Notes under the pieces: model-generated
Told to the model about the DNA's origin: nothing
The model's database searches: none
What the model saw: only the letters and a program-made list of their open reading frames with translations
DNA from: Thermoanaerobaculia bacterium
Lineage (GTDB): Bacteria > Acidobacteriota > Thermoanaerobaculia > Multivoradales > UBA5704
Length of the DNA stretch: 64,000 nt
Reading direction: 5' to 3'
Assembly (NCBI GenBank): GCA_044226625.1
Contig: JBGAGQ010000011.1
Location: 32,001 to 96,000 of the forward strand
Position numbers and translations under genes: made by a program
Part shown: positions 34,355 through 42,097 of the stretch, piece by piece
How positions within the stretch are numbered: position 1 is the first letter of the stretch
How the letters are laid out: the number at the start of each line of letters is the position of its first letter

Positions 34355-35560
34355 ATGACAAAAGCGAGCGCCTCTGCCGCCGCTTCGACGGCGTTCCGGT
34401 TCGTGCTGGTGATGGGCGCGGTAAACCTTTTCGCCGACGCCACCTACGAGGGAGGTGGAAGCCTCAACGGCACCTTCCTGGCCTCGCTCGGGGCGAGCGC
34501 CGCCGCGATCAGCGTGATCGCCGGCTTGGGCGAGTTCCTTGGTTACAGCTTGCGGTCCGTTTCCGGGTACCTCGCCGACAGGACGGGAAAGCATTGGCCG
34601 ATTACCTTCATCGGCTATACGGTCAACCTCCTCGCGGTACCGGCCATGGCGCTCGCTCCCTCTTGGCAGGCCGCCGCGACGCTCGTTCTCGCGGAACGTA
34701 TCGGGCGCGCTTTGCGCAAGCCTACCGTCGAGGCGATGCTTTCCTACACGACCTCCAAGCATGGAAAAGGGTGGGTGTATGCGGTGAACACGGCGCTCGA
34801 CGAAACCGGCGCTACCCTCGGGCCCCTCCTGATGTCCCTCGTTCTCTATCGCGGCGCCGGTTTTCATATCGGCTATTCACTCCTTCTCGCCCCCGCGTTG
34901 CTTGCGATCGCCTGCCTGGTGGCCGCGAAGGTCATCTTCCCACTGCCTTCGAAGCTCGAAGAGGGCGGCGCTTCCACCGCTTCGGCGCCCGGTTTCACCC
35001 GCGCCTACTGGCTCTACATGACTGCCGGCGCCTGCTTCGCGGCCGGCCTCATGAGTTTCGAGCTGATCTCGTTTCACCTGTCGGCCAGCGGCACCGCGAC
35101 GCAGCACTGGATACCTCTCTTCCTGGCCATCGCCACCGCGTTCGCCGTCGCTGCGAGCCTGATTCTCGGGAAGCTCTACGATCGGGTCGACATCCGGGCC
35201 GTCGTGATCGGTGTGGTGGTGACGGCGGCGTTCCCGCCGCTGGTTTTCCTCGGCGGGCCTTGGGTTGCGCTTTTCGGACTGATGCTTTGGGGCGTCGGCT
35301 ACGCAACCCAGGACACTCTGCTCAAGGCACTCATCGCCAGCGTGTTGCCCGAGAAGCGCCGCAACCTCGCTTTCGGCATCTTTTACCTTGGGTATGGCGG
35401 CGGTTGGCTGCTGGGCAGCGTCGTCACGGGTCTGCTTTACGACAGGACGCGGATCGGCTTGATCGGGTTCGCGATGGGAACCCTTCTCACCTCGGTGCCC
35501 TTTTTCATGCTGGGTGCGAAGGCGTCGAAACGACTTCGGCGCCAAACGTCGGGCCGGTGA
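34355..35560 (+). CDS. MFS transporter
   Basis: About 12 hydrophobic segments; SGYLADRTGK and LGKLYDRV loop motifs. Confidence 0.9.
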   Translation: MTKASASAAASTAFRFVLVMGAVNLFADATYEGGGSLNGTFLASLGASAAAISVIAGLGEFLGYSLRSVSGYLADRTGKHWPITFIGYTVNLLAVPAMALAPSWQAAATLVLAERIGRALRKPTVEAMLSYTTSKHGKGWVYAVNTALDETGATLGPLLMSLVLYRGAGFHIGYSLLLAPALLAIACLVAAKVIFPLPSKLEEGGASTASAPGFTRAYWLYMTAGACFAAGLMSFELISFHLSASGTATQHWIPLFLAIATAFAVAASLILGKLYDRVDIRAVVIGVVVTAAFPPLVFLGGPWVALFGLMLWGVGYATQDTLLKALIASVLPEKRRNLAFGIFYLGYGGGWLLGSVVTGLLYDRTRIGLIGFAMGTLLTSVPFFMLGAKASKRLRRQTSGR

Positions 35561-36550
35561 CTCGAGGCGGCTCCTTTCCGCGGGAGGAACGGAAGGATCG
35601 GGTCGGAGCAACCAAGCGGCGAAACCCGCTTCCAACGCGTCCCACGACTCACCGAGCGTAGCGCGATGCCGCTCCGCGTCGAAACGCTCTCCTCGCGAGA
35701 GGGTTTGGAGATATCCCTTGAAACGAGGTGCGAGCCGCGGATCGAGCAGTAGATAGCGGACCAGCAGGGCGCTTTCCTCGTAGTCGAACGAACGCACGTC
35801 GCGATCGAAATCGCTTCGATCGAGGCCGGCGAGCTCGGACAAAGGACGCGCCCAGCCCCGGGACCGGGCTTCGCGCAGCCGCTGGGCGAGAGCCTCGACA
35901 CCGACGACTCCGCGCAGCGGAGCGATCCCCTCCTCCGAGGCGCTGTAGCCGATCGCGTCGGCGAGCCCCTCGGAGAGCCACGGAGGAAGATTCGTGCCGA
36001 GCGCCCGCCGATGGACCAAGTGGGTCAGCTCGTGAGCGAGCGTGGTGATCGCGCTCTTCCGTCCGCTCCCCGCGTGGATGACGATCAGGCCGTCTACATC
36101 GCTCGCGAAACCCGCGTATCCCGCGGCGAGACGACCGTCCGCCTCGACGAATCGCCGATAGGACGAGAGCGTCGCGAAGAGGACGATCCCCTCGACGGGC
36201 TTCCCCGCCGGCACCACCCCGAACCGCTCCGCGTAGACCCGATCGATCGAGGCGCCGATCCGCTCGCAGGCCGTGAGCAGGAGAATGTCGCGGCTGTCGG
36301 TGGTGAGCGTATACGGTCCGCAACGCCCTTCTTGGGAACCCGACATCGTCGAGCGGGCGAGCGCCCGGAGCTTCGGATTCGGCGGGTGAGCCGCACGAGG
36401 GGCGGAAAGCGGCGGCTTGGGCCGGAATCGAGGCGGCTTCAAGACCCGAGGCGGCGAGGGCTCGCCGCAGCCCGAGATGAGGGCGCCCAGGAGGACGCAC
36501 GCGCTCAAGCTGCGGCTCGCCCGAGAAGATCGGGTCCTGAAGCCCCTCAT
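34877..36550 (-). CDS. DUF1570-like / gluzincin metallopeptidase lipoprotein (3' end uncertain)
   Basis: LISGC lipobox; LAHELTH...PPWLSEGLA. The domain appears to end near 35600 but no stop occurs until 34877. Confidence 0.65.
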   Translation of the reverse strand: MRGFRTRSSRASRSLSACVLLGALISGCGEPSPPRVLKPPRFRPKPPLSAPRAAHPPNPKLRALARSTMSGSQEGRCGPYTLTTDSRDILLLTACERIGASIDRVYAERFGVVPAGKPVEGIVLFATLSSYRRFVEADGRLAAGYAGFASDVDGLIVIHAGSGRKSAITTLAHELTHLVHRRALGTNLPPWLSEGLADAIGYSASEEGIAPLRGVVGVEALAQRLREARSRGWARPLSELAGLDRSDFDRDVRSFDYEESALLVRYLLLDPRLAPRFKGYLQTLSRGERFDAERHRATLGESWDALEAGFAAWLLRPDPSVPPAERSRLESPARRLAPKSFRRLRTQHEKGHRGEKGSHREPDQADPRPVVKQTRDDAAQQPTAAIPKVKDAESEVAALLGQHAGDECLEQSVLGCVADAPKHQSEKRNPRPAEENQRRERRRHHHTDHDGPDVDPIVELPENQARSDGERGGDGQEERYPVLRRGAAGRQVKRDQLETHEAGREAGAGSHVEPVGAGETGRRSGGSAALFELRRQWEDDLRGHQAGDRKQRGGEKE

Positions 36551-36707
36551 CGCGTCACCATCCGAGGAAGCGTAAACCAACCGCCCCCCCGCCTTCTGAA
36601 AGCCCCCTCCTCGCCGGGGCATGGCAAAGCCATAGGCTGCGCCTGGGGCCTGGAGCGCCCCGGTCGAGGAGAGGGAGTTGTAACGCGGAGTTACTGCGAG
36701 GAACTAC

Positions 36708-37088
36708 TTACGCGGCTTCGGGGGAGGCGTTCGTCACGGTCGGCTGGGCCTTTGCCTTCGTGCGCACCGGCGGGCGGCGCGGGCGGAAGCCGAACTTGAC
36801 CAGGGTCTCACTGCCGAAACCGTGCTTCCACTGGAGGCTCGCGCCGATCCGGCGGCGCAGGCGGTCGCCTTCGAGCGCGAGGCTCTTGCGCTCGACCGTC
36901 ATCCCCTGGGCCTCGGCGCGCAGCAGTTCCTGGTGCGCCTCGAACTCCCGGCTCTTGCGGAGGATCTCCTTGAGCTCCGCGACGTCGGCCGAAAGGTACG
37001 GCAGGTCGGGAAGGTCGGGCTCGAGGTTGGTGACGAGGGTTTCCCAGCGGCTGATGCGCGCGACGAGGGTCTGGCCGTTGGCAGCCAT
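36708..37088 (-). CDS. Hypothetical helical protein (126 aa) with basic C-terminal tail
   Basis: AAAGGAG RBS; coiled-coil-like core; ends HGFGSETLVKFGFRPRRPP. Confidence 0.75.
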   Translation of the reverse strand: MAANGQTLVARISRWETLVTNLEPDLPDLPYLSADVAELKEILRKSREFEAHQELLRAEAQGMTVERKSLALEGDRLRRRIGASLQWKHGFGSETLVKFGFRPRRPPVRTKAKAQPTVTNASPEAA

Positions 37089-37160
37089 GATGCGGACTCC
37101 TTTTTCGCCTTGCGGCAAGGTGTGGGGTCGATCCCACGCCGCGAGGGTAAACCACGAGGG

Positions 37161-37559
37161 TCCGAGAAAACGATAGTTTTTCGCGAACGAAGATTTTTTC
37201 TTCCGGGAAAGGGCGTCCGAGCCGGGCGGGTCTTTCTCCGGGCGGTCGATCCGACGGGGGAATGCAGTCGATGCGACCGTTGAAGCCCACGATGCGGCGG
37301 CGGAATCCGGTCGACGCGCCGGCCGAAGCCAGCGATGCGAGCGCGGAATCGACCGGTTCGGCCTGTCGAAGCAACGGCTGCGGCGCCCGAATCGACTGGC
37401 TTCGATGGCCGAGTCGACCCGAGGAGGCGACGAACCGACTGGATTCGAAGGTCGCATCGACCGGCTTCGGTCGCCGAAACGCCCTCTTGGGCCGTCCTAG
37501 GGAATCGGTGCGCCTCGGCGAAAAAAAGATCGCTCGTCAAAAACTATCGTTTTCTCGGA
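37161..37559. repeat. Element with 40-bp inverted termini and an internal 22/21-bp phased array
   Basis: TCCGAGAAAACGATAGTTTTT at 37161-37181 and its exact reverse complement at 37539-37559 (34/40 over the full arms); ten degenerate units at 37260-37475. Confidence 0.85.
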
Positions 37560-37632
37560 GGGACCTCATGTACTCTCGGGTGGCCCGGTTCGGCATTTAT
37601 ATGCGGGCGACCTTCGCAACTCCCGGCTCGCC

Positions 37633-38157
37633 TTACGCCGCATCCACCAAGTCGAGGCGGACCTTTAGATCCCTGAGCACGTAGAACGGGTCCCGGTAGC
37701 GGACTGCAAACTCCCTGCAGACATCGGGCAGCAGAATACGGGCTCGCGAATCGGGCCGTGGCATCTCGTTCGTGACGACCTCCGTGCCGCGGACCATCGA
37801 ATACGCGACCAGCCACCCATCCGCCTCGGTCGCGAACTTGGCCTTGGCGCGGTCGAGGTATTTCGAGTTCCGCTGTACCCAGAGCATGATCTCGGCGTAG
37901 GCCGTACTAACGTCTGCGGCATTCGAGTCGACGAAAAAGCCGGCTGGGACGTCGTTCCTCACCCATTGCACGAGATCCTCTTCCTTCCGTCCTGCCAGCA
38001 GCTCGGCGCGAATTCGATCGAGGCTTTGGGCTCGGCCATGTCGGTGCGCTTGGAGAACCGCCTTCCAGAATCCCGGGCAGATCTCAAAGGCGTAGTAAGT
38101 GTTTTTGGCGGTAATGAAGACGTCCGCATCGAGCAGGTAGACGGGAGGCTTGCTCAC
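37633..38157 (-). CDS. DUF4411 family PIN-domain protein
   Basis: YLLDADVFITAKNTYYAFEICPGFW, ADGWLVAY, VVTNE, LPDVC; GTGA overlap with the upstream gene. Confidence 0.88.
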   Translation of the reverse strand: MSKPPVYLLDADVFITAKNTYYAFEICPGFWKAVLQAHRHGRAQSLDRIRAELLAGRKEEDLVQWVRNDVPAGFFVDSNAADVSTAYAEIMLWVQRNSKYLDRAKAKFATEADGWLVAYSMVRGTEVVTNEMPRPDSRARILLPDVCREFAVRYRDPFYVLRDLKVRLDLVDAA

Positions 38158-39305
38158 GGCAGGTCGACTCCGAGCCGGCGGGCGTACTCCTGGAACGCGC
38201 CCCCGCGGAGATCGGTGAGATCGTAGGCCTCCCGGAAGGTCAATCGCCCTTCCATCGCGGCGAAGATGACGCTGGCCGCGAACCTGGCACCGACGCGCGT
38301 ATTTTGATTGTTGTAGAAGTCGCCGCCTCCGGAGGGCTTCGATTGCTGCCGCTCCGTCTTCGTGTAGGCGTCGTAGAACGCGAAGAAGGCCTTCCGGTCG
38401 ACGAGTGCGAGATCCATCGCCCGACGGCCGGCCACGATCTGGCTCACTTTGAAGTGCCGGGCAACCCGCTCGAACGCATCGTGTGCGCCTTTGATCGTTC
38501 GCCAGAGCTCCTTGAGCTCGGCCGCCGGCACGAGGAGCTCCGCCGCCGCCTGATCGCAGAACGTTTCGATCCGCGTGCCGCCGGGGAAAATGCCGTCGAA
38601 GCCCGAGAGCCCCTCGCCTTCCGAACCAAGCCAAACGTGGGCGAGCTCGTGCGCGAGGGTGAACATCTGGGCCGACTTCGCATCCGCGCCGTTGACGAAC
38701 ACGAGCGGGGCGTAAGGGTCGCTCAGGGCGAATCCTCGAAACTCGTTCACGTCGAGCTTTCGGTGGGTGTCGTTGCCGACGACGCCATTGATGACCGCCA
38801 TCACGCCGAGCTGCTCGATGCGACGCCGAAGCTCGCTGACCGCCTCCCGCCAGCTTGGGACCTTGGAGGCCCAGCCATCGTCGAGCCCGAGCATGCGGCG
38901 CATCTCTCGCCCGACCGCTGCCGGGTCGTCGCCGAGCCGCGCGCTGCCCACGAACTCCACGGGCTCCGCTTCGCTCTCGATGCGCGATTCCCGGAGCCAG
39001 TCCTGGCGCCGCTGCATGGCGTAAATGGTGTCGAGCAGATCGGCGCTGGGCCGCCCGGGGCTGCGAACGCCGGTTCGCAGGTCCCGGATCGGCAGCCGCT
39101 CGACGGGAGGCTCTGGAAGAAGCATGTACCCGAGCGGCGTGTGAGTTGCCTTCGCGAAGGCCTCGAGCTGTTTGAGCGTCGGCTGCCGCTCCTCACGCTC
39201 CCATGCCCCTAGCTGCGGAAAGCGAGTCGACAGCACGAGCTCGTCGACCCGCGACCGTTCGACCGCCCAGCGCAAAAGCTCCGGCTTGACCTCGACACGC
39301 TGCAT
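38154..39305 (-). CDS. HTH + ImmA/IrrE family Zn metallopeptidase
   Basis: N-terminal WEREERQPTLKQLEAFA HTH; EFRGFAL; FTLAHELAHVW; ETFCDQAAAELLVP. Confidence 0.92.
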   Translation of the reverse strand: MQRVEVKPELLRWAVERSRVDELVLSTRFPQLGAWEREERQPTLKQLEAFAKATHTPLGYMLLPEPPVERLPIRDLRTGVRSPGRPSADLLDTIYAMQRRQDWLRESRIESEAEPVEFVGSARLGDDPAAVGREMRRMLGLDDGWASKVPSWREAVSELRRRIEQLGVMAVINGVVGNDTHRKLDVNEFRGFALSDPYAPLVFVNGADAKSAQMFTLAHELAHVWLGSEGEGLSGFDGIFPGGTRIETFCDQAAAELLVPAAELKELWRTIKGAHDAFERVARHFKVSQIVAGRRAMDLALVDRKAFFAFYDAYTKTERQQSKPSGGGDFYNNQNTRVGARFAASVIFAAMEGRLTFREAYDLTDLRGGAFQEYARRLGVDLP

Positions 39306-39501
39306 GGCCAGTTCCTGGCTCCTACTTTGGAAGGATCCGAGCAGTCTAGTCCAACCTGACTGCGGTCTTATCTTACCGATCGCCGCCGTAACGAGTCGCG
39401 TGGAATTCTCTGGGCGGTCGAGGCGCTGCTCGAAACGCAGGTGTCCGCCCCGGCCGTCGACGCTCCGATCCCGACCGCCTAACCTGCCGGCGGTCGTCCC
39501 C

Positions 39502-39530
39502 AAAAGCAAAACGCCCGAGAAGCTCGGGCG
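39502..39530 (-). terminator. Intrinsic terminator after tRNA-Glu
   Basis: Minus strand CGCCCGAG-ctt-CTCGGGCG-TTTTGCTTTT. Confidence 0.7.
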
Positions 39531-39547
39531 CTGGAAGGTCGAAGCTT

Positions 39548-39623
39548 TGGTAGCGCATACGGGATTCGAACCCGTGTTCCCGCCGTGAGAGGGCGACGTC
39601 CTAGACCCCTAGACGAATGCGCC
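39548..39623 (-). tRNA. tRNA-Glu (anticodon CTC)
   Basis: GGCGCATTCGTCTAGGGGTCTAGGACGTCGCC-CTCTCAC-GGCGGGAACACGGGTTCGAATCCCGTATGCGCTACCA, 76 nt with encoded CCA. Confidence 0.96.
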
Positions 39624-39644
39624 GGAACATCAACCGCGGGCGGA

Positions 39645-39674
39645 TTTATAGCACAACGCTTCCGGCGACTTCAA
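39645..39674 (-). promoter_or_regulatory. Putative sigma70 promoter of tRNA-Glu
   Basis: TTGAAG-N18-TATAAA with TGn extension, 21 bp upstream of the tRNA. Confidence 0.55.
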
Positions 39675-39679
39675 ATCCG

Positions 39680-42097
39680 CTAGTCGTTCCGCAGCGCCTC
39701 CACGGGGTTGACCTGGGTCGCGCGGGTCGCCGGAAGGTAGCTCGCGACGAGCCCCACCGAGGCGAGCAGACCCGCCACCAGGAGGATCGACGCCGGGTCG
39801 TACGGCTCGACCCCGTAGAGGATTTTCGAGAGGAAGAACGAGAGCCCGATCGCCACCGGGATCCCGCAGCCGAGCGCCAGGAACACGAGCTTCGCCCCTT
39901 GGCCGACGACCAGCTTGAGGACCTGCTCGCGCCGGGCGCCGAGGGCGACCCGCACGCCGATCTCCCGCCGCCGTTGGCCGACCAAATAGGAGAGGAGCCC
40001 GTAGACGCCGATCGCAGCCAGCGCGAGCGCGAGGCCCGCGAAGACCGAGAACATGCCGCCGAAGAAGCGCTGGTCCCAAATCCGCGAGTTGAAGAGCGTA
40101 CGCAGCGTTTGCAGGTCGAAGACCGGCAAGCCCGGATCGGCGGCCCGGATCACGCGCCGTGCGCCCTGGGCGACGGTCGCGGGCGGGCTGCTCGTGCGCA
40201 GTGTGAATCCCGTGTTCGGCATCGGCGCCCAGCGATAGGGGAGGAATGCCGCCGGCTCGACTCCTTCGTTCTCCGTGTCGAATCCGTCGTAATGGAAATC
40301 CGGCACCACGCCGATCACGGTGATCCAGGGTTTGCCTTCCTCGTCGAGCAGTCGGAAGCGTTGCCCGACCGGATCCTGCTTCGGCCAACGCTTCTTGGCG
40401 AAAGCCTGGTTGATCACCGCGAGCGGGGCTTTGCCGATCTCTTCCGAGTCGTTGAACATGCGGCCGGAAACGAGCTTTACGCCCGTGGCGTCCATGAAGT
40501 GCGCGGTCACCCCGGCCCAGTAGCTGTAAGGCTCCTTGCCGGGTTCCACCGGATGGCCGGCGATCTCGATCGAGCCGCCCGCGCCGCCGCCGCCGAGCGG
40601 GATCAGGTTCGAGGCCGCGACCGCCTCGACGCCGGGGAGCGTCTCGAGGCGCTGCACCAGCTCTTCCACCCGCCGGCTCTTGGCATCCGGCTCGACGTAG
40701 GACTCGCCGGGCAGATAGATCCGAAGCGTCATGATCCGGTCGACGTCGAAGCCGGGATCCGCGCCGCGCACCGCGAGGAAGCTGCGCATCATCAGCGCGG
40801 CCCCCACGAGGAGGACCAGGGCGAGGCCGAGCTCGCCGACCACGAGCAGGTTGCGCATCCACGACCGGCCGCCGGCATCCGAACGGCCGCCCGATTTGAG
40901 AATGTCGTGCAGGTTCCTGCCGGTCGCCTGGAGCGCCGGTACGATGCCGAAGAGAAGCCCGGTGCCGATCGCCGCCGCGGCGGTGAACGCGAGAACCGGA
41001 CCGTCGATCACGACCTGGATCCAGTAGGGCGGCTGGTTGTCCGCCGGGATCGAGGACATCATCCAGAGCACGCCGAAATGGGCGAGGCCCACGCCGAGGA
41101 TTCCGCCGCCGATTCCGACCAGGACGCTCTCGGTCAACACCTCGCGCATCAGCCGGTGCCTTCCGGCGCCGATCGCCGCGCGCACCGCGAGCTCGCGGCC
41201 GCGGGCCGTGACCCGGGAGAGGAACAGATTCGCCACGTTGGCACAGGCGATGAGCAGGACGAAGATCACCATGAACATGAGGATCAGCGTCATGCGGTGC
41301 ATCCCCTCGCCGACCAGCTCGCGCCGAAGCGAGCGGACTTCGCCGCCCCATCCCTTGTCCTCCGGGTGCTCGTTCGCGATCTTGGCGGCGAACGCCTCGA
41401 CCTGCGACTGGGCCGCCTCGACCGTCGAGCCCGGGGCGAGCCGGGCATAGACCGAGATCACTCGGTCGGCGCGCGGGTTCTCGTGGTGGTCGAGCGCCAA
41501 CGGCGCCCACGCGAGGCATCTCTGGGGGAATTGGAACCGGGGAGGCATGACTCCGACGATGGTGGTCGCGCGATTGTTGACCAGGACCGACGTACCGATC
41601 ACCTTGGGGTCGCCTTCGAACCGGCGTAGCCAGAGCTCGTGCGAGATCAAGATCGTCCGCGGCGCGCCGGGCTGGTCGTCTTCCGGTCGCAACAAGCGGC
41701 CGAGCGCGGGTTTGACCCCGAGCATCGGAAACAGGTTCGCCGACATGTCGAGGCCGATCACCCGTTCGGGCTCGTCCTGGCCCGCGAAGGTGAGGCTGCG
41801 CTGGGTAAACCCAGCCACCTCGGAGAAGACCCCTCGGCTCTCGACCAGCTCCCGGTACGCCGGATAGGCGAAGTCGGCGCCTTTGATGTCGGCCTGCAGC
41901 TGGTTCGTGTGGAGGCTCAGGATGCGGTCGGGATCTGCGAACGGGAAGGGCCGAAGGAGAATCGCGTTCACCACGCTGAAGATGGTCGTGGTCGTACCGA
42001 TTCCCAGACCGATGCAGACGATGGCCGCGAGGGTGGTCGTCGGCGTCTTGGCCAGCATGCGCAAGGCATAGCGGATTTCACGCAATAGGGTGTCCAC
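39680..42097 (-). CDS. ADOP-type duplicated ABC permease (MacB/FtsX x2)
   Basis: LLREIRYALRMLAKTP, LLIACANVANL, RELAVRAAIGAGR, RRREIGVRVALGA, ATQVNPVEALR. Confidence 0.92.
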   Translation of the reverse strand: MDTLLREIRYALRMLAKTPTTTLAAIVCIGLGIGTTTTIFSVVNAILLRPFPFADPDRILSLHTNQLQADIKGADFAYPAYRELVESRGVFSEVAGFTQRSLTFAGQDEPERVIGLDMSANLFPMLGVKPALGRLLRPEDDQPGAPRTILISHELWLRRFEGDPKVIGTSVLVNNRATTIVGVMPPRFQFPQRCLAWAPLALDHHENPRADRVISVYARLAPGSTVEAAQSQVEAFAAKIANEHPEDKGWGGEVRSLRRELVGEGMHRMTLILMFMVIFVLLIACANVANLFLSRVTARGRELAVRAAIGAGRHRLMREVLTESVLVGIGGGILGVGLAHFGVLWMMSSIPADNQPPYWIQVVIDGPVLAFTAAAAIGTGLLFGIVPALQATGRNLHDILKSGGRSDAGGRSWMRNLLVVGELGLALVLLVGAALMMRSFLAVRGADPGFDVDRIMTLRIYLPGESYVEPDAKSRRVEELVQRLETLPGVEAVAASNLIPLGGGGAGGSIEIAGHPVEPGKEPYSYWAGVTAHFMDATGVKLVSGRMFNDSEEIGKAPLAVINQAFAKKRWPKQDPVGQRFRLLDEEGKPWITVIGVVPDFHYDGFDTENEGVEPAAFLPYRWAPMPNTGFTLRTSSPPATVAQGARRVIRAADPGLPVFDLQTLRTLFNSRIWDQRFFGGMFSVFAGLALALAAIGVYGLLSYLVGQRRREIGVRVALGARREQVLKLVVGQGAKLVFLALGCGIPVAIGLSFFLSKILYGVEPYDPASILLVAGLLASVGLVASYLPATRATQVNPVEALRND

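Follow-up and report, generated by a model that had tools for sequence, protein, structure and literature searches.

What is a regularly spaced, non-coding tandem array doing immediately upstream of the gene for a small helical protein? The question is raised by a locus in a 64,000-nucleotide (nt) stretch of DNA from a Thermoanaerobaculia bacterium (assembly GCA_044226625.1, contig JBGAGQ010000011.1, positions 32,001 to 96,000; hereafter the window, in whose own numbering all coordinates without a contig label are given). An initial annotation, made from the sequence itself, had noticed there ten degenerate units enclosed by inverted repeats and lying beside a gene for a 126-residue protein, which we call the small helical protein (SHP). 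We found that array and gene are parts of a recurrent module, comprised of an array of 20-22-bp units and, 30-400 bp downstream of it, a gene for an all-helical SHP of about 125 residues, sometimes accompanied by a gene for a DCoH-like protein. Among the genomes searched, a single GTDB family of Thermoanaerobaculia (Acidobacteriota) has the array-SHP module. The recurrent pairing of tandem repeats spaced at two helix turns with the gene for a small rod-like protein just downstream is apparently undescribed; a brief literature search, too thin for a claim of absence from print, returned no such arrays in Thermoanaerobaculia or Acidobacteria. The elements of the locus are the following:

36708..37088, minus strand: SHP gene (126-residue small helical protein), identified by open reading frame (ORF), ribosome-binding site, alignment and AlphaFold2 model
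37089..37137, minus strand: putative 5' leader with two small hairpins ahead of AAGGAG, from sequence and ortholog alignment, with a putative transcription start
37142..37200, minus strand: left arm of the inverted repeat, a promoter-like box aimed at the SHP gene, with the TAnnnT hexamer TACCCT at 37144-37149
37244..37497, no strand: degenerate tandem array of the K type, 10-11 units of 22 and 21 bp in turn, forming a 43-bp dimer
37520..37578, plus strand: right arm, an inverted second copy of the box aimed away from the array, with its core at 37540-37553 and the hexamer TACTCT at 37571-37576

The array is real, and its originally described layout was reproduced exactly on rechecking: units start at 37260, 37282, 37303, 37325, 37346, 37368, 37389, 37411, 37432, 37454 and 37476, at spacings of 22, 21, 22, 21, 22, 21, 22, 21, 22 and 22 bp, and units 1-7 begin with GAAT and GAAG in alternation. 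A unit of this K type approximates GAATCC-N3-GGATTC followed by a GC-rich spacer. Tandem Repeats Finder (TRF) reports, at 37245-37350, a period of 22 (4.9 copies, 66% matches) and one of 43 (2.4 copies, 77% matches). When the autocorrelation of 37240-37480 was scored against 1000 dinucleotide-preserving shuffles, the match fraction at lag 43 reached 0.596 (z 9.5), a value equalled by 0/1000 shuffles; none equalled lag 65 either (z 5.0), and lags 21 and 22 together gave a z of 5.6. Of the peaks that had been predicted, those near 21.5 and 43 bp were thus found and the one near 10.7 bp was absent (z -0.7 at lag 10 and -2.8 at lag 11). The description of the array as helically phased holds, as does its separation from protein repeats, given a dimer of 43 bp, and from clustered regularly interspaced short palindromic repeats (CRISPR), because the units abut without spacers and are only 66-77% alike.

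The evidence that the array belongs with the gene comes from its recurrence beside relatives of SHP. An iterated profile search of all ORFs recovered 19 SHP paralogs in the window's own genome, and arrays were called throughout by a TRF period of 19-23 with at least 3 copies or of 40-45 with at least 2 copies. An array lies at most 400 bp upstream of 12 of the 19 paralogs, as against 0.7% of random oriented positions, and at most 1100 bp upstream of 14, as against 1.7%; three of the other five have shorter TRF matches (2.4-2.8 copies) and two have none. In a complete genome from another genus (G014) all 16 of 16 paralogs carry an array, its end placed 30-202 bp before the gene. The same TRF criterion is passed at 10 of 17 best-hit relative loci with at least 800 nt upstream; degenerate units are visible by eye at four more relative loci (L018, L021, L025, L030), and no convincing array could be seen by eye at L022, L024 and L031. 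Gene-array order and distance are conserved between genera, and SHP is the only gene family that recurs next to arrays. Unit sequence varies from locus to locus; orthologs at 75-79% identity retain a related unit, with drifted copies, at a period near 22 (22/44/65-66), in keeping with the early impression that spacing is kept while sequence drifts.

The protein had been taken for an orphan, a view that its 19 paralogs and its relatives elsewhere overturn. In a public library clustered at 50% identity, the number of matching representative clusters is 1398 at a threshold of E<=0.001 and falls to 718 at E<=1e-10; the few named homologues are labelled 'hypothetical protein' and come from Thermoanaerobaculia or Acidobacteriota. 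Searched with the single SHP at E<=1e-15, 17 of 24 genomes of the same GTDB family gave a match and 0 of 16 genomes from other families of the order did so. Among 300 genomes sampled evenly from the phylum, the sole match was one other genome of the same GTDB family, in a search that scored 14 candidates per genome and so possibly missed weak relatives. Profile searches counted 16 paralogs in G014, 7 in G009, 49 in G013, and 0 in both G031 and G032. Arrays follow the same pattern: even samples, under the same TRF criteria, held 11 (G014), 15 (G013) and 6.5 (own genome) arrays per 400 kb, and genomes without a paralog held 1 per 400 kb (G031), 2 per 200 kb (G032) and 1 per 110 kb (G034), all of them weak matches. 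Paralog absence was established by profile in G031 and G032 and by single-protein search alone in G034. That arrays track the SHP family across genomes is therefore a lead, not a statistic, with three mutually related genomes on each side, each represented by fragment samples except the own genome, which was scanned whole.

Arrays of this kind are also far more numerous than SHP genes. The own genome holds 107 merged arrays totalling 21.4 kb, whose periods, with double periods halved, are 20 (37 arrays), 20.5 (6), 21 (58), 21.5 (2) and 22 (2). Among TRF rows with at least 5 copies, periods 20, 21, 40 and 42 account for 90 of 151, and periods 16-19 and 23-39 for 5; this genome has almost no long arrays with other periods. 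By sequence the arrays group into families, the largest with 13 members and none with more than one SHP-adjacent member. Orphan arrays outnumber SHP-linked ones by about 6 to 1, and 21 of the 107 stand at contig ends. In many units an AT-richer palindrome is joined to a GC-rich spacer. The best dyad arm is 5 nt or longer in 25 of 48 arrays, a length attained by 15.8% of random 21-mers, though members of one family are counted here without being independent; in 29 of 39 arrays, conservation is higher in the dyad columns than in the spacer. This anatomy would suit operators of a dimeric protein. Paralogs of G014 with 53-79% protein identity have related half-sites (GGAT-nn-ATCC, GGAAC-nn-GTTCC, GAGAT-ct-ATCTC and GGAGAT-cg-ATCTCC).

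The window array has K-type relatives at three other loci of its own genome, each lying between outward-facing boxes:

C123:96108-96514, about 100-500 bp past the end of the window: K-type array between outward-facing boxes
C97:179-708: K-type array between outward-facing boxes
C21:522-897: K-type array between outward-facing boxes

The boxes at these three arrays face a tRNA-Arg gene, a gene for a 470-residue membrane protein, a MarR-like gene and a large secreted-protein paralog, and the three may constitute a small regulon of the window SHP. At C34:52280-52699 another box is followed by an array of a different kind, whose unit measures about 41-50 bp (..GCGCTCGGAAAAATC..) and which reaches the contig end.

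As to the protein itself, the gene beside the array proved to be as first described in its length of 126 residues, helical character, strong ribosome-binding site (AAGGAG, 7 nt ahead of the ATG) and basic tail; the reported gap of 72 bp to the left arm did not hold, the ATG lying 75 nt from the arm as originally drawn and 53 nt from the extended arm. The AlphaFold2 model (mean predicted local distance difference test, pLDDT, 85.7) places helices at residues 8-28, 30-89 and 94-99, followed by a low-confidence basic tail. The predicted architecture is thus a long helical hairpin, a conserved C-terminal motif (G-F-x-S-E-x-L-x-x-F-G-x-x-P-R) and the tail; G90, L96 and G100 are invariant in the alignment. 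No significant match to SHP turned up in Pfam (0 families at E<=0.1), NCBIfam or PADLOC, a PDB profile search returned generic coiled coils alone (E>=0.01), Foldseek found nothing in the PDB at E<=0.001, a wide VIA-align comparison reached a best Z of 6.4, in the range of generic helical hairpins, and the ESM Atlas yielded unnamed Acidobacteriota clusters only. Homodimer prediction gave an ipSAE of 0.64, against 0.00 for the best of 3 controls; at that mark, a benchmark admitted 20 of 30 proteins solved as one-chain pairs and 1 of 23 solved as single chains. The runs agreed in at least 88% of contacts with partner pLDDT of at least 78, and the predicted contacts, which pair residue 39 with 74-81 and residue 42 with 70-74, run antiparallel. 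With the long helices so arranged, each end of a rod would bear one C-terminal motif and one basic tail and, from the length of helix 30-89 and the symmetric contacts, we infer that the dimer rod would span about two DNA turns between its tails.

A third component recurs upstream of SHP. Over 27 SHP loci, the sole recurrent neighbour is a protein with the Pfam domain Pterin_4a, to which the enzyme DCoH belongs. Of the seven Pterin_4a matches in the own genome six lie directly upstream of an SHP gene, usually with an array in between, and the exception is the high-scoring canonical copy:

C109:47969-49189 and C125:65711-66873, as examples of the six own-genome loci: divergent Pterin_4a gene upstream of an SHP gene

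All 12 of 12 non-canonical matches in G009, G013 and G014 are likewise directly upstream of an SHP gene, making 18 of 18 non-canonical copies examined, and G031 and G032, which are without SHP, have the canonical copy only. The non-canonical copies score 19-73 bits, against about 100 bits for the canonical enzyme of the same genomes. This DCoH-like gene accompanies about one third of the modules; there is none at the window locus.

What, then, are the inverted repeats around the array? They had been described as 40 bp long; the repeat is genuine, in fact extending over 59 nt (37142-37200 and 37520-37578, 75% complementary and 319 nt apart), while the original register (37164-37203 against 37520-37559) was off by 3 nt and matches at just 18 of 40 positions. 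The arm core CCGAGAAAACGATAGTTTTT is the same in both arms, and the left arm contains a palindromic core, AAAAC-GATA-GTTTT (37167-37180), and an A/T tract (37190-37200). When the own genome (6.6 Mb, 133 contigs, 67.7% G+C) was searched with the 421-bp element, the arms alone recurred, with interiors that differ or are absent, and the 19-nt core AAAACTATCGTTTTCTCGG has 31 copies at <=3 mismatches. Alignment of the copies shows an A-rich tract, a palindromic core that hardly varies (AAAAC-TATC-GTTTT), a 12-nt spacer that does and, at a fixed distance, a TAnnnT hexamer; for these four shared features we term the arm a promoter-like box, which points outward from the array. Its parts look like an UP element, an operator substituting for the -35 element, and a -10 element. 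This putative promoter function is suggested by three further observations: the box is found 50-90 nt ahead of the start codon in the window gene and in seven orthologs from other species; the stretch between box and start codon is conserved among orthologs and bears a hairpin; and one copy lies about 75 nt ahead of a tRNA-Arg gene. In the window this leader has the hairpins GTGGG..CCCAC and GCC-GCAA-GGC. It is alignable over 7 orthologs, in which the first hairpin is kept as GTGGG(A)..(T)CCCAC, and five orthologs have, by eye, CGTC-GAAA-GACG instead of the second, GNRA-looped hairpin. A sigma-70 consensus scan of 36500-37750 found 0 sites.

An exact 15-mer of the box occurs 25 times in the own genome, 1-10 times in 6 of 7 congeners and 0 times in 33 genomes of other genera, its reversed control pattern being found in none of the genomes; judged by these counts, the box is genus-specific. 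Twelve pairs of boxes face away from each other, eight of them 55-98 bp apart and four enclosing 359-515 bp, each of the latter holding a K-type array. The right-arm box of the window faces the 3' end of a convergent DUF4411 gene, in antisense. At the six orthologous loci with sufficient upstream sequence the second arm is missing and the gene-proximal box stands alone, so that the order array, box, leader and gene is common to the window and these six. The expectation that homologues would share both an upstream inverted repeat and an array has therefore been borne out for the array and has failed for the second arm. A target-site duplication at a consistent offset was found at 0 of 12 box pairs. 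Its absence and the solitary gene-proximal box of the orthologous loci argue that the arms are not the ends of a mobile unit, and an invariant core beside a variable spacer points to functional constraint in place of recent copying. On this sequence evidence the inverted repeats are two divergently oriented copies of a genus-specific box, not transposon ends, and the non-autonomous mobile unit once suggested for the enclosed array is not supported. Joints in the DNA run X1 that skip 341-357 nt were considered as deletion alleles and are better read as cross-mapping of other box pairs.

With these elements in hand, we tentatively prefer the view, whose chances we put a little below even, that SHP binds the DNA of its own array cooperatively as the predicted antiparallel dimer. 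The rod-like dimer would carry its C-terminal motifs and Arg-rich tails about two helical turns apart; these would touch the AT-richer, often palindromic cores of successive units on a single face of the DNA, and one array would load a cooperative chain of SHP dimers. What suggests such a chain is the combination of a two-turn period across unrelated units, palindromic cores and an expanded paralog family as the sole recurrent neighbour. The array at its own SHP gene would confer autoregulation, and the window array, just upstream of the box that would drive SHP, stands where an autoregulatory site would be expected. Orphan members of an array's unit family would offer additional loading sites.

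Several observations weigh against this proposal. The window array is degenerate (66-77% matches) and its dyads are weak, and SHP has no recognizable DNA-binding fold or family in Pfam, Foldseek, PDB profile or VIA-align searches. In G014 the distance from array end to ATG is 5-60 nt at many loci, and some arrays have sigma-70-like promoters upstream of them, so that the array there is probably transcribed; a stricter home-made sigma-70 scan, run on 35 upstream regions, yielded few sites. Of the 31 boxes, nine are directed into an array. Half-sites differ between paralogs that are 79% identical, which would place specificity on few residues. Finally, orphan arrays are enriched between convergent genes, with 30 of the 66 classified, by a crude gene call that recovered 2465 genes, against 19.5% of intergenic regions (the remainder being 29 tandem and 7, a depleted class, divergent), an enrichment that autoregulation is unable to explain.

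A broader form of the same idea, which we would entertain more than expect, is an 'array code', in which dozens of paralogous rod dimers (7-49 per genome) would each recognize a palindromic satellite of their own with a phasing of two DNA turns, in some cases together with a DCoH-like cofactor, and would build protein-DNA filaments at about 100-300 intergenic sites per genome.

The best-surviving alternative, which we nevertheless consider improbable, is that the arrays act as RNA. They would be transcribed leaders, intercistronic spacers or 3' tails, and either the Arg-rich tail of SHP, which we presume to be comparable to arginine-rich RNA-binding motifs, would bind the repeated RNA units in translational autoregulation or in a ribonucleoprotein, or the repeats would steer mRNA stability in cis, in the manner of repetitive extragenic palindromic (REP) sequences. 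The closeness of arrays to the ATG at many of the 16 G014 loci fits this alternative, as do near-consensus promoters upstream of the array at L096/L026, L102 and L105, seven J-type arrays that begin 40-70 nt past a box and have only a convergent gene beyond them, and the co-directional DCoH-like gene, array and SHP gene of 5 of the 6 own-genome loci. Other observations speak against it: dyad centres are 0-2 nt in 18 of 39 arrays, too short for the loop of an RNA hairpin, dyad arms fall short of 4 nt throughout in 9 of 48 arrays, dyad mismatches of the G:T kind (98) show no clear asymmetry over A:C (74), and array orientation relative to flanking genes is, on crude gene calls, of no consistent strand within families. 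A structured RNA had been among the initial suggestions for the window array and is not supported: folding of either strand gives z-scores of -1.2 and -1.8, and Rfam at E<=1 over 35000-40000 finds only a tRNA and two sub-threshold chance matches, with none at the array. Nor does a period of two DNA turns over unrelated units have an evident RNA rationale, and in the window and the six orthologous loci the box stands between array and gene. In the single RNA run found (6% of sampled words), contigs, which are incapable of showing transcript starts, cover parts of 37576-38289 and the tRNA, and neither the array nor the SHP gene.

It is less probable still that the arrays are cis-regulatory or architectural DNA for another factor, or produce intrinsic curvature through their 21-bp phasing, with SHP genes merely placed under them. 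Protein similarity corresponds only loosely to unit sequence, the orphans amount to about six per SHP-linked array, and 17 of 31 boxes have an array no more than 300 bp away, where chance would give 1.2%, a proximity that would tie arrays to transcription signals in general. Such a factor would have to explain why SHP is the sole gene family recurring beside arrays and why the two co-occur at the level of genomes; moreover, many different palindromic half-sites would require many binders.

To selfish or mobile satellites we attach somewhat less weight again. The arrays, or here the whole arm-array-arm element, would be of the REP/bacterial interspersed mosaic element (BIME) type or of the type of miniature inverted-repeat transposable elements (MITEs), gathering where tolerated, with SHP encoded by a master copy or hitch-hiking with it. 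The enrichment of orphans at convergent gene ends and their depletion at divergent ones, the 21 arrays that abut contig ends, the range of box copies from 0 to 25 over 8 congeners, the position of 4 of 4 own-genome K-type arrays between inverted boxes, and a Y1 transposase match 1.2 kb from an H-type array are all of the kind expected of satellites. Speaking against satellites are the 12 arm pairs without a target-site duplication, the near-invariance of the 19-nt core beside its variable 12-nt spacer, the preservation of gene-array order and distance across genera, the availability of a single Y1 transposase for dozens of unit families, and SHP itself, in which neither Pfam nor the AlphaFold2 model reveals nuclease or recombinase features. 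The chance that the arrays are low-complexity accidents or remnants of heptad-coding repeats is negligible: 21 bp equal 7 codons and some 21-bp arrays fall within long open frames of this GC-rich genome, and yet the idea is already contradicted by the shuffles, none of which equalled the lag-43 autocorrelation, by 48 of 107 periods that are not multiples of 3, by about 95 of 107 arrays that overlap no ORF with coding-like G+C content at third codon positions, and by the recurrence of arrays upstream of paralogs.

If cooperative binding by SHP is taken as the working model, comparison with known systems is instructive. ParR-parC-like systems (R1 parC, TubR-tubC and the omega heptads) have short phased repeats that surround or precede the promoter from which a small dimeric binder of about 120 residues is expressed, with cooperative loading and autoregulation expected. 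The window and the six orthologous loci resemble them in having phased repeats at the putative promoter of SHP's own gene. They differ in that the SHP model is all-helical, with residues 1-7 as coil and no strand of a ribbon-helix-helix (a strand formed only on dimerization could be missed in this monomer model), and in that SHP matches no known sequence or fold in Pfam, Foldseek or PDB profile searches. Furthermore, no actin-like or Walker NTPase recurs beside SHP at the 27 loci, and the modules are chromosomal, numbering 7-49 per genome, with about 100 orphan arrays. Theta-replicating plasmids combine iterons with a Rep initiator, and F has the 43-bp sopC repeats. The window array is like iterons in its tandem direct repeats of about 22 bp beside an AT-rich stretch in GC-rich DNA, and like sopC in its 43-bp dimer. 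Unlike iteron origins, it has no Rep-like gene, SHP belonging to no Pfam family and the neighbours being DUF4411 and Peptidase_M78 genes, and its AT-rich stretches are copies of the dispersed 31-copy box; besides, a genome with 107 arrays cannot use every one of them as an origin.

REP/BIME clusters are paired with REP-associated tyrosine transposases (RAYT; Y1, IS200-like). Our arrays share with them short palindromic units in intergenic clusters, a division into several families each having at most one protein-linked copy and many orphans, and a preference for 3' gene ends. In contrast to REP/BIME, the units are strictly tandem at 20-22 bp, the array is solely upstream of the gene, and the linked protein is SHP in place of a Y1 transposase, the sole Y1_Tnp match being on contig C79 and not at the window locus. 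That match (C79:2876-3097, IS200/RAYT-like) lies 1.2 kb from an AT-richer 20-bp array of the H type, the GGAATCGTTTTTTAACTCCA type with 5 loci, and this family alone may be a true REP/RAYT system. H-NS and Lsr2 are small nucleoid proteins with a coiled-coil oligomerization region, a basic C-terminal segment and AT-rich targets. SHP is reminiscent of them as a predicted helical rod with a basic, Arg-containing C-terminal segment, whose antiparallel dimers could chain along DNA, but it has no homology to them (0 Pfam families at E<=0.1), occurs as dozens of paralogs per genome, and accompanies discrete, sequence-defined arrays in GC-rich DNA. For the third component the parallel is DCoH-HNF1 alpha, where the pterin dehydratase fold binds the helical dimerization bundle of a transcription factor; the likeness consists in gene adjacency only, a Pterin_4a gene lying directly upstream of the gene for a predicted helical-bundle dimer in all 18 copies, and the bacterial non-canonical copies differ from DCoH in their scores of well below the canonical level.

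As in MITEs, the window element has terminal inverted repeats, here with arms of 59 nt, 75% complementary; unlike MITEs, it has no target-site duplication, and the whole element is not repeated with even divergence. In addition to the abutting units that distinguish the window array from CRISPR, no Cas protein was found among the three Pfam-scanned neighbours (SHP, DUF4411 and Peptidase_M78), although no search was aimed at cas genes. A genuine CRISPR array is present elsewhere in the genome (C121:96520-100079, 65-bp period, repeat end GGATTGAAAC), and Cas2-like and Cas1-like ORFs lie about 4 kb from it, beside a short box pair. Taken together, the module fails the defining tests of partition centromeres, REP/BIME-RAYT, CRISPR, MITEs and iteron origins. 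By analogy, its closest functional counterpart would be the phased arrays that serve small plasmid-partition proteins as operators or centromeres, and its genomic distribution is most like that of REP/BIME with RAYT. For the SHP family, its genome-wide scale and the DCoH-like partner, the brief literature search turned up no described counterpart in the sources it reached.

If SHPs bind their arrays, they would be a new DNA-binding family with natural specificity variants, offering dozens of protein/half-site pairs per genome and thus a ready system for studying how recognition codes diversify, and about 100 intergenic sites per bacterial chromosome would carry a marking that has escaped notice. 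The arrays break assemblies and go unannotated, and SHPs are labelled just 'hypothetical'. The linkage with Pterin_4a genes further provides a testable role for non-enzymatic DCoH-like proteins in bacteria. Were the array code true as well, filaments at convergent-gene junctions could act as insulators or transcription roadblocks, the rod dimer might be the ruler that sets new duplications at 20-22 bp, and the whole would amount to a chromatin-like layer in bacteria without a described counterpart.

Beyond the right arm, the window contains the following genes:

37633-38160, minus strand: DUF4411 (PIN-like) gene, Pfam E 6.3e-40
about 38154-39350, minus strand: gene with helix-turn-helix and Peptidase_M78 (ImmA/IrrE) domains, its end overlapped by the DUF4411 gene
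39551-39623, minus strand: tRNA gene, Rfam 56.6 bits, tRNA-Glu (CTC) according to ARAGORN

In the metatranscriptome run X3, from a biofilm, a contig of 182 nt is identical to the junction of the DUF4411 and ImmA genes (38108-38289), which points to a near-identical strain in that RNA library, with DNA carry-over possible. On the tRNA gene at 39551-39623 many unrelated contigs from metagenome runs pile up.

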